From the IMG/VR virus record IMGVR_UViG_2703718828_000001, positions 1 through 41,597 of that record: DNA of 41,597 nt. The stretch is one strand, 5' to 3'. The notes under the pieces are model-generated. The model had not been told where the DNA came from, did no database searches, and saw only the letters and a program-made list of their open reading frames with translations. Origin of the DNA: a virus. Its lineage: Duplodnaviria > Heunggongvirae > Uroviricota > Caudoviricetes. This document shows, piece after piece, positions 5,565 through 17,893 of the stretch. The first letter of the stretch is position 1; every line of letters starts with the position of its first letter. The position numbers were made by a program, and so were the translations under genes.

Positions 5565-5641
<77 letters not shown>

Positions 5642-13482: not shown

Positions 13483-14259
13483 TTATTTTGCTACAACAAA
13501 AGGAATAATATTATCTGCAGGGATTATGATGCTATTTATTTTTGGTATCAATAATCTGCCATTTTGATAAAAATCAAATACGAATCTAAACTCTTTCTCA
13601 TGCCTGAATTTTTGTGGTTTAAGCATATAGCTATGGCTTAACCAATCAATAACTTGTTTCGGATTAGTTTCAACCTCTTTGTTCTCAATCTGTATATTCC
13701 TTTCAGTGTACTTTATTTGGGTAGCTTCCCACTCCAAATGTAAAGTATCTTTTGTAACCTCTCTGTCGAATAGAGATTCACCATTTTGAATTCTCTTCCC
13801 TATAGTTAGTATCAAAGACTGCGCAATTTCATTAGCTACTTTCTCTAAATCTTCTAATTTGATGTGCCAGTAATCATTATAATCCTTGAATATGGATTTG
13901 CATTCAAGAGGATCTTCAAGAAGTGAAATGCAGAATACAAATCTATTGTATTTACTCAAAGATGCCGTAGCCTTAAATTTATCAATGAATAAATAGTCAG
14001 TTGCTAGCTTACTGTGAGGATATACAATTAATTCCTCGGTGTAAAATTTGTTATCAGAATTAAATGACGATGACATTTGATTGAATAAATGTGCAGGTAA
14101 ATCTATTCCGGATAAGTTAAAAGTCATAAATATATATCCTTCATCCTTGTCTGCAATCTCTTCTTTTTCTGTATCCCTGTATTCCGTCAGACTTCCTATT
14201 TTGATTGTTTTCCTGATTAAAATATTGTCACGTTCATCGCAACTTTTCACTAGATACAT
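13483..14259 (-). CDS. AT-rich orphan cargo gene, 258 aa, no recognisable domain
   Basis: ATG at 14259 with AAGGTG RBS; visibly A/T-rich against GC-rich flanks; antisense to the late operon, between Q and the lysis cassette. Confidence 0.6.
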   Translation of the reverse strand: MYLVKSCDERDNILIRKTIKIGSLTEYRDTEKEEIADKDEGYIFMTFNLSGIDLPAHLFNQMSSSFNSDNKFYTEELIVYPHSKLATDYLFIDKFKATASLSKYNRFVFCISLLEDPLECKSIFKDYNDYWHIKLEDLEKVANEIAQSLILTIGKRIQNGESLFDREVTKDTLHLEWEATQIKYTERNIQIENKEVETNPKQVIDWLSHSYMLKPQKFRHEKEFRFVFDFYQNGRLLIPKINSIIIPADNIIPFVVAK

Positions 14260-14861: not shown

Positions 14862-15129
14862 TCCGAGTGCAATAGCGAATGCCGTTATTTGCGGCGTAAT
14901 CGTCCTTGTACTGATGTTCTACCAGCGTGGCGGGGCGAGACATCGCCCGTTGATATCGCTGATGGCTTATTTCACGGTGCTGGTATACGCCAGCGTCCCT
15001 TTCCGTTACCTGTTCGGCCTGTACCATGAATCACACTGGTTTGTGGTGCTGGTGAACGTCCTGATTTGTGCTGCCGTTCTCTGGGCTCGGGGAAACGTGG
15101 CGCGTCTGATTGATGCACTGAGGCACTAA
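14848..15129 (+). CDS. Holin-like small membrane protein
   Basis: 93 aa from ATG at 14848 (GGAGGAGGG RBS); hydrophobic segments; immediately upstream of the endolysin. Confidence 0.5.
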
Positions 15130-15758
15130 TGAACCAATTACAATTTCAAAAGGCGGCTGGGTTAAGCGCCGAGTTAGCTGCGCGCTGGTACCAGCCAATC
15201 AGTGATGCGATGAAAGAGTTCGGTATCACCAAGCCAGTAGACCAGGCTATGTTCATTGCGCAGGCGGGGCATGAGTCGACAGGGTTCACCCGGCTGCAGG
15301 AAAACTTCAACTACAGCGTAGTGGGGTTGGCCAGCTTCATTCGGTCTGGGCGTATCACACAGGACCAGGCTAACGCGCTGGGCCGCCGACCTGAAGAGCG
15401 AGCATTACCGATTGAGCGCCAGCGTGCCATAGCTAACCTGGTATACAGCAAACGCTACGGTAACAACTCGCCAGGTGATGGATGGAAATACCGTGGGCGT
15501 GGCCTCATCGGCATTACGTTCCTGGATAACTACCGTGACTGTGGAAATGCCCTGAAGGTCGATCTGGTTCAGCAGCCTGAGCTGTTAGCCGAACCAATTT
15601 ATGCAGCCAGAAGCGCTGCATGGTTCTTCGCCACAAAGGGATGCCTGAAATATTCAGATAACCTGATGCAGGTGACGAAGATTATCAACGGCGGAACGAA
15701 CGGACTGGAAGATCGTCGCGCTCGATTCGGTCAGGCAAAAACGGCCATGGTGGTGTGA
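15129..15758 (+). CDS. Endolysin, glycoside hydrolase family 19 (chitinase-like)
   Basis: [22 protein letters not shown]...[24 protein letters not shown], typical of GH19 phage lysozymes. Confidence 0.8.
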
Positions 15759-15759
15759 T

Positions 15760-16071
15760 ATGACAACGAAGATATGTCTCTTGCTTTCCGCCATTCTTCT
15801 TATGTCTGCTTGCGACAATGGGCCAGAGCCAGCCAGGTCTACAATGGCTGTTTCCTCGCAACTTTCATCTGACGCTGACCGCATCAAGGTGACAAAAATG
15901 TCAGAGTTCCGTGACGGACTCGCTTATGACAATTGGCGCGGTGTTTATCTCATCCAGGATAAACAAACGGGACGTGAATACATCGGAATAAGTGGAATCG
16001 GTATATCGGAGGTTGGGTCTCATAGTCAACTGGTCGGCAAAGTTCAGCAGCAGGTAAGGGACGAAAGATGA
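15760..16071 (+). CDS. Lipoprotein of unknown function within the lysis cassette
   Basis: Signal peptide plus lipobox (LLMSAC); sits between endolysin and spanins. Confidence 0.5.
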   Translation: MTTKICLLLSAILLMSACDNGPEPARSTMAVSSQLSSDADRIKVTKMSEFRDGLAYDNWRGVYLIQDKQTGREYIGISGIGISEVGSHSQLVGKVQQQVRDER

Positions 16072-16343
16072 ACCTTGAACTAATGCTAGCGCTGATAGTT
16101 TCGGCACTCGCAGCAATTGCCGGAGCGTTTGGATTGGGCCATATCCGCGGCACCAGCAAAGCTGAAGCGAAAGCAGACCAGCAGCGCACTGAAGATAAGG
16201 CCGCCGCCACTCAAGCAGTAGCCGAACGCCGGGTAGAAGCAACGAAAGAGGCCAGCAATGTACAGCAGAATGTTAACCGCATGCCTGATGACGATGTTGA
16301 TCGCGAGCTGCGTGACACGTGGAAGCGTCCCGGTGGTGGTTGA
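16068..16343 (+). CDS. i-spanin (Rz-like)
   Basis: N-terminal TM helix then charged coiled-coil region; position after endolysin. Confidence 0.6.
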   Translation: MNLELMLALIVSALAAIAGAFGLGHIRGTSKAEAKADQQRTEDKAAATQAVAERRVEATKEASNVQQNVNRMPDDDVDRELRDTWKRPGGG

Positions 16344-16476
16344 TACAGCCTGTGACTGGGTAAAGCCAATCTATCTGACTGATCACGACATTGATGTTCT
16401 TGACCGCCAGACGAAACGCGATGTGCTGGCACATAACAAAGCGTGGAAGGCTAACTGCCAGAAGGAGATGAAGTGA
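16258..16476 (+). CDS. o-spanin (Rz1-like lipoprotein) overlapping Rz in another frame
   Basis: Lipobox LIASC; starts inside the Rz gene and extends past it. Confidence 0.55.
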   Translation: MYSRMLTACLMTMLIASCVTRGSVPVVVDTACDWVKPIYLTDHDIDVLDRQTKRDVLAHNKAWKANCQKEMK

Positions 16477-16856
16477 ACGAACAGGCACAAAAAATACTTA
16501 CCGATCTGCTACAAAGAGCTGCCAATGGAGTGGATGCAGCCGTGTCATTCAGTCAGTCTCAAATTCCTGATGTGGTTCGTCAGTTACTAATTTGGAACTT
16601 TGCTGCGTCGGTGATTTTTTCCATCTTAGGTGTCCTGCTTTTTGCAGGGGCGCAGTTTGGTGCATGGAAAGTATTTAAGCACCTTCGAAAACGATGGCGA
16701 GATGATGAATTATGGGAACACCCAGAGATTATAATTATTGCAGTGGTCTACATCGTCACATTCGCGCCTCTGGGTTGGCTGTCATTGGACTGGTTAAAAA
16801 TCTGGCTCGCTCCAAAGCTTTACCTGATTGAGTACGCCGCCTCACTGATGAAGTAG
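16473..16856 (+). CDS. Hypothetical membrane protein
   Basis: GTG start with AGGAG RBS; two hydrophobic helices. Confidence 0.45.
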   Translation: MNEQAQKILTDLLQRAANGVDAAVSFSQSQIPDVVRQLLIWNFAASVIFSILGVLLFAGAQFGAWKVFKHLRKRWRDDELWEHPEIIIIAVVYIVTFAPLGWLSLDWLKIWLAPKLYLIEYAASLMK

Positions 16857-16903
16857 CCATTCCAAAGCTCACCTGCTGGTGGGCTTGATAATGCCGTAGC
16901 GCT

Positions 16904-17014
16904 CTAAAAGTTGAAGCCTTTTGCCAGGCAATAGGTTTTAACAATCTCGTTGATTGCTGGGGAAAGAGCGATTACTAGCGAGAAGAAAAGATCAATGTAG
17001 TGTGTATATGGCAT
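16904..17014 (-). CDS. Candidate small hydrophobic peptide, 36 aa
   Basis: Minus-strand ATG at 17014 preceded by AGGAGGT; MPYTHYIDLFFSLVIALSPAINEIVKTYCLAKGFNF. Confidence 0.3.
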   Translation of the reverse strand: MPYTHYIDLFFSLVIALSPAINEIVKTYCLAKGFNF

Positions 17015-17243
17015 GGGTTTACCTCCTGAGATTTAAGTGACTGGAGATACCTCGATGCGAGATATCTAGTGTGTCGGTTAACTCTCCGGGGTGATCTGTT
17101 ATCTACTATAAGAGATAAAACCTCTATCCTCTCAAGCGGATAAACATTCGAATATCCCGTGTAGGGGATAGGCCTTACAACAGGCATTCACTACTATGTG
17201 TGACAATGCTAATCTTGCTGTGCAAAAACACAGCAAGGAAATG

Positions 17244-17462
17244 CGCATGAACGAAGAAATGACAATTAGCAAATTGTATGAAATCGGGAAATCATACTTT
17301 CCTGGCGGACATTTTCGAGTGGAGGTATGGGATCTCGGTGTTCGTTTTGTGCATATGACTACCGAAAATAAAGAGGGAAAGACAGCTTTCCTTCAGGCTG
17401 ATCTTAAGACTCTTACATCTGCCGCAGTTCGCGGCTTCTTGGATGCTGAAACACGAGGCTAG
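17244..17462 (+). CDS. Hypothetical protein
   Basis: 72 aa from ATG at 17244 with AAGGA RBS; followed by a terminator. Confidence 0.4.
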   Translation, partial: RMNEEMTISKLYEIGKSYFPGGHFRVEVWDLGVRFVHMTTENKEGKTAFLQADLKTLTSAAVRGFLDAETRG

Positions 17463-17494
17463 ATTTCCATTTAATTCTGTACAAATAATCCCCC

Positions 17495-17522
17495 AAAGCC
17501 CTGCACCAACGGGGCTTTTTTA
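17495..17522 (+). terminator. Rho-independent terminator
   Basis: aagccc ... ggggct hairpin followed by T6. Confidence 0.5.
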
Positions 17523-17602
17523 TACGCAGAGTATGCGCTTCAAAGAAAGCCGATCCGTCGCGGGCCACCTGCTGTTGCTGGTGGTTTTTTATTGGAGTGA
17601 AT

Positions 17603-17893
17603 ATGGCATCCAGTTCACCCTGGCACCGACTCTATAACACCAAACGGTGGTACAGGCTCCGCTATCACCAGTTGCAGAAACAGCCACTCTGCGAGTTTCA
17701 TCTCAGGCGAAATCAGGTGATAGCCGCAACCGTTGTTGATCACATCAAACCACACAAGGGTGACGAGACGCTCTTTCACGACCCCGGAAACTTACAAAGT
17801 TTATGCAAACGCTGTCACGACTCAGTGAAGCAGCGCATGGAGAAGGGCGGAACGGTAACGGAATTCGACAATGATGGTCGGGTTATCTGGTAA
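17603..17893 (+). CDS. HNH endonuclease, packaging-associated
   Basis: CEFH...VDHIKPHKGDETLFHDPGNLQSLCKRCHD HNH motif; just upstream of terminase genes. Confidence 0.75.
   Translation: MASSSPWHRLYNTKRWYRLRYHQLQKQPLCEFHLRRNQVIAATVVDHIKPHKGDETLFHDPGNLQSLCKRCHDSVKQRMEKGGTVTEFDNDGRVIW

Follow-up and report, generated by a model that had tools for sequence, protein, structure and literature searches.

The lysis-packaging junction of an HK97/HK022-like prophage: a variable moron slot with a possible orphan micro-gene

The window analysed here (the whole stretch of viral DNA, 41,597 nucleotides in length) belongs to an HK97/HK022-like lambdoid enterobacterial prophage, whose structural genes share about 86% identity with those of HK140, mEpX2 and HK022. 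Between its plus-strand lysis cassette and an HNH endonuclease gene, two small transcription units are arranged back to back: on the plus strand a gene encoding a protein of 71 residues, and on the minus strand an open reading frame (ORF) of 36 codons (Table 1). As the lysis cassette lies upstream and HNH, TerS and TerL follow downstream, the region represents the lysis-packaging junction and is situated on the path of the Q-dependent late transcript. The Q antiterminator gene is located upstream of this junction so that, by established lambdoid biology, late transcription of the plus strand should read through the region; the whole 36-aa ORF is antisense to the late operon. The placement between lysis and packaging modules proposed by a sequence-only reading of the window is hence borne out, with endolysin, Rz/Rz1-like genes and the gene of a 127-aa membrane protein on one side and HNH-TerS-TerL on the other.

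Table 1 Features of the lysis-packaging junction and its surroundings (positions are those of the window)
Feature	Position	Strand	Remarks
Two holins		plus	Lysis cassette, upstream of the 36-aa ORF
GH19 endolysin	15129-15758	plus	Lysis cassette, upstream of the 36-aa ORF
Small ORF between endolysin and Rz-like gene		plus	Lysis cassette
Rz-like gene	16068-16343	plus	
Rz1-like gene	16258-16476	plus	
127-aa membrane protein, phrog_3054	16473-16856	plus	Last gene of the lysis cassette
Conserved 37-nt junction element	16857-16893	plus	End of the lysis module; 9-bp hairpin (16866-16874 / 16879-16887)
Lineage-specific segment	16894-17124		231 bp; holds 36-aa ORF, Shine-Dalgarno sequence and leader
36-aa ATG ORF, MPYTHYIDLFFSLVIALSPAINEIVKTYCLAKGFNF	16904-17014	minus	Stop codon included
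Shine-Dalgarno sequence AGGAGGT	17021-17027	minus	Read from sequence
Predicted imperfect 72-nt leader hairpin	17021-17092	minus	5 of 7 Shine-Dalgarno bases paired with upstream ACCCC
Best promoter-like site for the 36-aa ORF, TTGAGA-19-TATAGT	17105-17135	minus	10/12 matches; relaxed scan
Two perfect 18-bp palindromes, TATCC-N8-GGATA	17125-17142, 17153-17170		Between the divergent promoters
Extended -10 promoter of the 71-aa gene, TGTGACAAT	17199-17207	plus	Implied start at about 17214
5' stem-loop, CTTGCTGTG-N6-CACAGCAAG	17214-17237	plus	Perfect 9-bp inverted repeat
71-aa gene	17247-17462	plus	Small conserved phage family; C-terminal motif GFLDAE(T/K)R
Intrinsic terminator 1	17495-17524	plus	9-bp GC-rich stem (17495-17518) and U-run; z -2.8
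Second hairpin with U-run	17562-17595	plus	Just upstream of the HNH gene
HNH endonuclease	17597-17893		Downstream side; followed by a 69-aa ORF, TerS and TerL

The plus-strand unit (17199-17595) is a textbook moron, comprising its own promoter, a gene and an intrinsic terminator, which are conserved as a unit. The sequence-only reading had described a divergent gene of 72 aa (17244-17462) with its own terminator; orientation and terminator stand, whereas the start is shifted to 17247 and the product to 71 aa. This start is backed by an AAGGAA Shine-Dalgarno (SD) sequence (17235-17240) and by gene callers, which also report 71 aa. An extended start at 17196, giving 88 aa, was rejected, as it has no SD and its frame is broken by a 1-nt indel in the related locus L019. 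Homologues of the protein share 42-89% identity, with 7 matches in an indexed search, and the family amounts to 14 clusters in 1.8 billion representatives. Its gene is always found between lysis and terminase genes, and this holds across three types of packaging module (HK97-like, P22/Mu-F-like and lambda GpA-like). Searches for relatives in collections of genome and metagenome contigs gave no confirmed loci. An AF2 model (pLDDT 86.7) predicts an alpha-beta3-alpha topology, for which no sequence family, PDB relative or informative structural match was obtained.

The signals of this unit are shared among relatives, termed L loci here, which were retrieved through the 71-aa gene. L001-L003 and L019 carry the extended -10 promoter TGTGACAAT unchanged, and L032 has TGTGATAAT in its place; the Serratia-type homologues of L013, L017 and L024, at 54% identity, still have TGTGACAAT upstream. 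Equivalent terminators are found 3' of the homologues in L013, L017 and L019. The 5' stem-loop abuts and partly covers the SD of the 71-aa gene, and the 51-nt stretch 17205-17255 containing it folds with -17 kcal/mol (z -4.0); covariation support for this stem-loop was sought among the relatives and is absent, as these show only wobble or disruptive changes.

Regarding the sequence that separates the two units, the sequence-only reading assumed an A/T-rich leader of about 350 bp suited to antisense RNA control. Measured from start codon to start codon, however, it spans only 232 bp, and its A/T-richness is mild (44% GC versus 51% for the window). For this stretch, divergent promoter/operator region is the more apt description, in preference to a target of antisense control. 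The two palindromes that it contains are the sole perfect copies of TATCC-N8-GGATA in the window (expected count 0.63 with one mismatch allowed). L001, L002 and L003 all keep the right half-sites, (G)GGATA; in L032, GGATA survives at the second palindrome only, the first reading GCGAATAA. The same promoter/operator cassette drives a different operon in L032. The palindromes were also considered as operators of the prophage repressor, an option that was dropped, since no further copies occur in the window.

On the other side of the minus-strand ORF, the boundary is formed by the 37-nt junction element at the end of the lysis module. This element occurs once in the window and is found with 92-100% identity in HK022, HK446, mEpX1/X2, mEp235, ECP1 and E. 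coli prophages. Its stem can be fully paired only as plus-strand RNA, by means of G.U pairs (window, L003, HK022 and L032), and a C.A mismatch arises on the minus strand; neither strand offers a U-run. The junction hairpin thus probably serves the late transcript and would make a poor terminator for the 36-aa ORF.

Homology of the retrieved relatives to the window begins only at 17106-17135. L003, a viral locus, and L032, an E. coli prophage, both have the homologue of position 17125 onward immediately next to the junction element. Hence, the 231 bp in between constitute a lineage-specific segment, and the 36-aa unit is, in the manner of a moron, present or absent between otherwise collinear phages with precise junctions. 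A blastn search of this segment against phages (E ≤ 1e-3) gave no match; it was encountered solely in near-identical copies of the prophage. Other relatives carry different cargo at this place: L019 a 154-aa minus-strand protein with a hydrophobic, transmembrane-like C-terminal segment, the Serratia-type phages a 60-aa ORF together with a KTSC-domain ORF, L017 a 109-aa ORF, and L032 a 184-aa ORF, a GT2 glycosyltransferase gene and one further ORF. In L001, a truncated fragment of a GT2 gene is present. The region is therefore a variable 'moron slot' at the lysis-packaging junction, occupied here by the two small back-to-back transcription units. Several alternative origins of the segment were rejected. 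An ERIC-like repeat had been considered owing to an 11-nt resemblance, and a search of 16894-17130 against 5,426 E. coli genomes gave no match even at E ≤ 10. A MITE is contradicted by the segment being single-copy in the window and having no terminal inverted repeats. Likewise, a truncated N-terminus of a larger cargo gene found no basis in the 154-aa gene of L019 or the GT2 operon of L032, as neither shows any similarity.

The minus-strand ORF itself is present as described by the sequence-only reading; it opens with ATG, and the AGGAGGT ribosome binding site stands at good spacing, 6 nt upstream of the start codon. How much weight such a signal can bear was estimated by dinucleotide shuffling of the window: of sites combining AGGAGG with a downstream ATG that opens an ORF of 30 codons or more, 0.47 are expected per window and three are observed. 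As two of the three sites belong to ordinary genes, the third being the 36-aa ORF, the SD alone is not decisive. When the 390-nt intergenic stretch is shuffled, about 75% of the products contain an ATG ORF of 30 aa or longer; one that also combines an SD core with a best 19-residue Kyte-Doolittle mean (KD19) of 1.6 or higher turns up in just 1.1%, a figure whose criteria were picked after the ORF had been seen. Gene callers report the ORF on Logan assemblies, whereas the NCBI annotations (PGAP) of the same prophage leave it uncalled. Assembly GCA_015316765.1 is among those that carry this prophage.

Of the hydrophobic core that was thought to resemble small membrane toxins, a mildly hydrophobic centre remains, at the lower end of what canonical toxins show. 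The peptide has a KD19 of 1.75, its longest apolar run (free of charged residues, N/Q/H and proline) covers 10 residues, and the short hydrophobic stretch is broken by D8 and P19. The Hessa insertion cost over 19 residues sums to about +7.0 kcal/mol, a value less favourable than that of any of the seven canonical toxins compared. The net charge is 0, compared with 0 to +3 for these toxins.

Relatives of the peptide were sought at several levels. Among 5.8 billion proteins, a padded query returned the self-match only, and tblastn against 50,697 phage and 72,556 plasmid records as well as degenerate patterns run on viral, genome and metagenome collections gave no match. Comparison with Pfam (E ≤ 0.1), NCBIfam (E ≤ 1), PHROG and PADLOC assigned it to no family, and by Pfam, NCBIfam and PADLOC it stands outside all described toxin families (Hok/Gef, Ldr, TisB, Ibs, ShoB, Fst and others). 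The exact ORF is found solely on near-identical copies of the same prophage. Nine such copies, compared over 1.6 kb, differ at a single position (17129 C>T), which falls in the palindrome region and outside the ORF; consequently, selection on the 36-aa frame is not measurable from them, and with no homologue found purifying selection is not demonstrable. The ORF is missing from the sister loci L002, L003, L019 and L032, and in L001 its place is taken by a non-homologous ORF. Translation signal and conservation in related prophages, the two properties on which the sequence-only reading had staked the ORF, therefore part ways here: the SD is present, and the ORF is absent from the sister loci.

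The ORF of L001 (the same phage as L021 and L033) deserves separate consideration. It encodes a hydrophobic peptide of 38 aa, MNIEKLLSTAIKIVSLATQIIILHHWLCKLQLETLLFA, matches the 36-aa ORF in position and strand, is preceded by a GAGAGG SD, reaches a KD19 of 1.68, and is likewise an orphan. The two ORFs were rejected as alleles, since the protein alignment scores 16 against a shuffle mean of 17 and the DNA comparison gives a z of about 1; they are analogues. When the L001 stretch is shuffled, an ORF satisfying the same criteria appears in 0.65% of cases. In addition, the SD of the L001 leader (GAGAG) is predicted to pair with an upstream CUCUC, a marginal structure (z -1.66, 9 of 200 shuffles being as stable). 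These unrelated ORFs of window and L001 form the best argument that the slot may encode small peptides, an argument from two cases judged by post hoc criteria.

In the window, the leader of the 36-aa ORF is predicted to fold into a long hairpin that includes the SD. The 101-nt leader segment reaches -25.7 kcal/mol (z -3.66), and none of 200 shuffles was as stable. The predicted structure would cover the SD in the way of the ribosome-blocking leaders of type I systems. Since the hairpin is a palindrome at the DNA level, the plus strand folds too, and the plus-strand fold of 17015-17246 (232 nt) is even better than that of the minus strand (z -4.84). By blastn, the leader hairpin was found in no other phage and in no E. 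coli genome; as it is not conserved in any other phage, covariation is lacking. The best promoter-like site for the ORF emerged from a relaxed scan, a stricter one having missed it because of its 19-nt spacer. The implied transcription start at about 17098 lies just 5' of the hairpin foot, and the -10 hexamer is not conserved in L001. At the other end, the junction hairpin, having no U-run and pairing worse on the minus strand, leaves the unit without a clear terminator. Judged as a moron, the 36-aa unit thus has a promoter-like site of 10/12 with a long spacer and a downstream hairpin devoid of a U-run.

Taken together, the small ORF can plausibly be read as an orphan micro-gene occupying a variable moron slot; at best, it is an unproven gene specific to this lineage. 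Tentatively, and with slightly less than even confidence, we regard it as a genuine lineage-specific micro-gene that is gated by an SD-occluding leader and whose expression from the prophage runs counter to late transcription. In such a scheme, a weak sigma-70 promoter overlapping the left palindrome would give rise to a minus-strand transcript from about 17098, the first 72 nt of which would fold and bury the very strong SD, so that the primary transcript would be poorly translated. Were the hairpin opened, be it through processing, a standby ribosome or a trans factor, the peptide could be made; it would be weakly hydrophobic and probably membrane-associated. Lying antisense to the Q-dependent late operon, the unit is proposed to be active in the lysogen and to be shut off in lytic growth, when late transcription converges on it. 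Candidate roles of the peptide are those of a membrane-active toxin, of an exclusion factor or of a modulator of a host membrane protein.

The most serious competitor of a genuine micro-gene is a chance ORF, which we consider quite possible though clearly short of an even chance. In that case, the 231-bp segment would be non-coding filler or regulatory DNA, for instance a remnant of cargo exchange, the combination of AGGAGG, ATG and frame would be fortuitous, and the frame would be neither transcribed nor translated to any effect. The complete orphan status of the peptide and its absence from sister phages fit well with a fortuitous frame, as do the roughly 0.47 ATG ORFs with strong SD expected per window, the ORFs of at least 30 aa in about 75% of the shuffles, the missing clean promoter and terminator of its own, and the silence of PGAP. 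The truncated GT2 fragment in L001 moreover illustrates that the slot gathers debris. However, SD and hydrophobicity coincide in only about 1% of the shuffles, an unrelated sequence of L001 in corresponding position and orientation satisfies the same criteria again, and in both loci the SD is predicted to be paired with an upstream anti-SD. Furthermore, phage genomes rarely keep 570 bp without function. A further rival would make the 72-bp palindrome or hairpin itself the functional unit, with the ORF being incidental, be it as an RNase III processing or stability element (of the late plus-strand RNA or of a non-coding minus-strand RNA) or as a protein-binding site in the DNA. RNase III typically acts on long imperfect hairpins of about 30 bp, such as lambda sib; the plus-strand fold of the 232-nt stretch surpasses that of the minus strand, and the neighbouring junction hairpin is clearly a plus-strand structure. 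Still, we find this rather improbable: the hairpin is absent from every other phage searched and hence offers no covariation, a perfect 7-nt SD at ideal spacing before a 36-codon ATG frame is left unexplained, and L001 retains the SD/anti-SD logic with a different sequence.

A type I toxin-antitoxin system, in which a membrane-depolarising toxin of 36 aa would be translated from a leader-inert mRNA and neutralised by an antisense RNA (either a small RNA or late read-through), would supply a role in prophage stabilisation, lysis aid or abortive infection as for hokW-sokW on Sp5. Size and hydrophobic centre of the peptide are within the range of Ldr-like toxins, the predicted structure of the long leader would sequester the SD, the ORF lies in its entirety antisense to the late operon, and a lambdoid prophage provides a precedent in hokW-sokW (PMC8621323). 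The antisense RNA control suggested by the sequence-only reading, however, found no support. Consensus scans of 16801-17266, which an unusual promoter could escape, yielded no plus-strand promoter-like site of at least 8/12, and neither did a stricter scan. No terminator bounding a small plus-strand antisense RNA and no direct repeat of at least 18 nt for trans pairing of the IstR or Orz type were detected. An Rfam scan of the region returned no credible match and no antitoxin RNA at E ≤ 1; the match to TLS-PK6 (E 0.14; 23.8 bits, with a gathering score of 44) was dismissed as chance. At this ORF, a case for an antisense RNA can thus be made for late-operon read-through only. In addition, Pfam and NCBIfam place the peptide in no toxin family, its insertion energy is the worst among the peptides compared, its net charge is 0 and its locus is not duplicated; the 36-aa ORF is not a recognisable toxin-antitoxin system. 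A type I system is unlikely, given that the search for an antitoxin RNA came back empty and that the peptide shows no more than weak hydrophobicity. Most speculative, and very improbable in our view, is the idea that the 36-aa and the L001 38-aa ORFs are fast-evolving, translation-gated membrane peptides that partner the conserved divergent 71-aa alpha/beta protein. Such a partnership would amount to an undescribed two-gene module sharing a palindromic operator region, for example a peptide toxin with a protein partner, or alternatively to an exclusion or abortive-infection switch at the lambdoid lysis-packaging junction.

Returning to the genuine micro-gene, synthesis of the 36-aa peptide would add one more orphan small protein to the poorly charted micro-genes of prophages, and its leader would afford a simple, natural and directly testable example of SD occlusion. 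There are three sturdier by-products. The HK97/HK022-like lysis-packaging junction emerges as a defined cargo slot, with a conserved 37-nt hairpin at its boundary; two palindromes and an extended -10 make up a portable promoter/operator cassette that drives differing cargo from one prophage to another; and a small conserved family of 71-aa proteins is always located at this junction. Current thinking is left unchanged by these results, which would help to annotate the junction in related prophages.

Among known systems, type I toxins (Hok/Sok, TisB/IstR-1, ZorO/OrzO, Ldr/Rdl, ShoB/OhsC) resemble the 36-aa ORF in their tiny ORF with a hydrophobic centre and in the masking of a strong SD by a long, structured 5' leader, the latter being a prediction in the present case. 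SD-occluding leader hairpins occur in many type I toxin mRNAs. As in the primary transcripts of tisB (+1) and zorO, the helix predicted here would join the SD to an anti-SD about 65 nt upstream. The pairing in L001 is analogous with a different sequence, a parallel drawn from two sequences only. Differences from type I systems are the absence of an antitoxin RNA, promoter or complementarity, the lack of membership in a toxin family and a marginal hydrophobicity. Moreover, type I toxins belong to widespread, often duplicated families, whereas the 36-aa ORF is an orphan. The hokW-sokW type I system, carried by the lambdoid prophage Sp5 (PMC8621323), additionally shares the location on a lambdoid prophage. 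The locus is nevertheless not part of the hokW-sokW family or of any other described one.

Lambdoid morons offer the other point of comparison. In lambda, bor is a moron on the opposite strand between Rz and cos, and HK97 gp15 is an inner-membrane exclusion protein likewise encoded by a moron. Morons are the subject of 'The moron comes of age' (PMC3594210). The 36-aa ORF differs from lambdoid morons by its weak promoter, by having no clear terminator and no homologue among the sequences searched, and by being far smaller than those described. Yet, it shares with them the position after the lysis genes and before cos or the terminase genes, the orientation against late transcription, the variable presence in collinear phages and a base composition that is AT-richer than the surroundings, and the adjacent 71-aa gene displays the full promoter-gene-terminator anatomy of a moron.

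Between the lysis and packaging genes of this HK97/HK022-like prophage lies a variable cargo site with lineage-dependent content, and the two palindromes together with the extended -10 sequence found there constitute a portable putative promoter/operator cassette. In the window, this cassette is located 5' of the 71-aa gene, while in the E. coli prophage L032 (NZ_CM132251) it is found instead upstream of an operon comprising a 184-aa ORF, a GT2 glycosyltransferase gene and a hypothetical ORF. The 88-aa ORF of the related locus L001, which shares 76% DNA identity with the intact GT2 gene of L032, is a leftover from cargo exchange in the same site.

Features of the prophage and of related loci
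Feature	Location	Strand	Remarks
tRNA-Arg(TCT) gene	window 5565-5641	minus	inside prophage early region
258-aa gene	window 13483-14259	minus	between Q antiterminator and holins
37-nt junction element	window 16857-16893		9-bp hairpin; closes lysis module
Predicted promoter/operator cassette	window 17125-17207		two TATCC-N8-GGATA palindromes, extended -10 TGTGA[C/T]AAT
Same cassette	L032 2991-3077
71-aa protein gene	window 17247-17462	plus
Promoter-like site TCGAAA-16-TATGAT (9/12)	window 17291-17318	minus	within 71-aa gene, directed at 36-aa small ORF
88-aa ORF	L001 3377-3643		N-terminal fragment of GT2 glycosyltransferase
Homologue of KwaA (Kiwa defence), with TerB/DUF3927 genes	L019 1-1380		just upstream of holins

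Members of the 71-aa family are encoded between lysis and terminase genes in every case, across three packaging-module types, and share an invariant C-terminal GFLDAE motif (longer form GFLDAE(T/K)R). An alpha-beta3-alpha fold is predicted with confidence for the 71-aa protein, and relatives of known function were found neither by structure nor by sequence. Two large proteins, P0009 (1531 aa) and P0021 (3539 aa), matched the family profile in a search of 1.8 billion representatives; both do so via many short repeated stretches and are probably repeat or low-complexity artefacts. The promoter-like site inside the 71-aa gene is conserved in L001, which is probably explained by the coding nature of this sequence alone.

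The junction element is 92-100% identical in HK022, HK446, mEpX1/X2, mEp235, ECP1, SaltyDalty, one Enterobacter phage and one Aeromonas phage. Changes within its stem preserve pairing on the plus-strand RNA only, via G.U pairs, and no U-run follows the hairpin. The element may serve the late transcript as a processing or stability hairpin, or as a recombination boundary.

In the sister prophage L019, the KwaA homologue and TerB/DUF3927 genes represent defence cargo near the late promoter. For the 258-aa gene of the window, no Pfam match is recorded in precomputed annotations. In other lambdoid phages, the interval between Q antiterminator and holins is the site of Shiga-toxin-type cargo, and the 258-aa gene occupies this same position.
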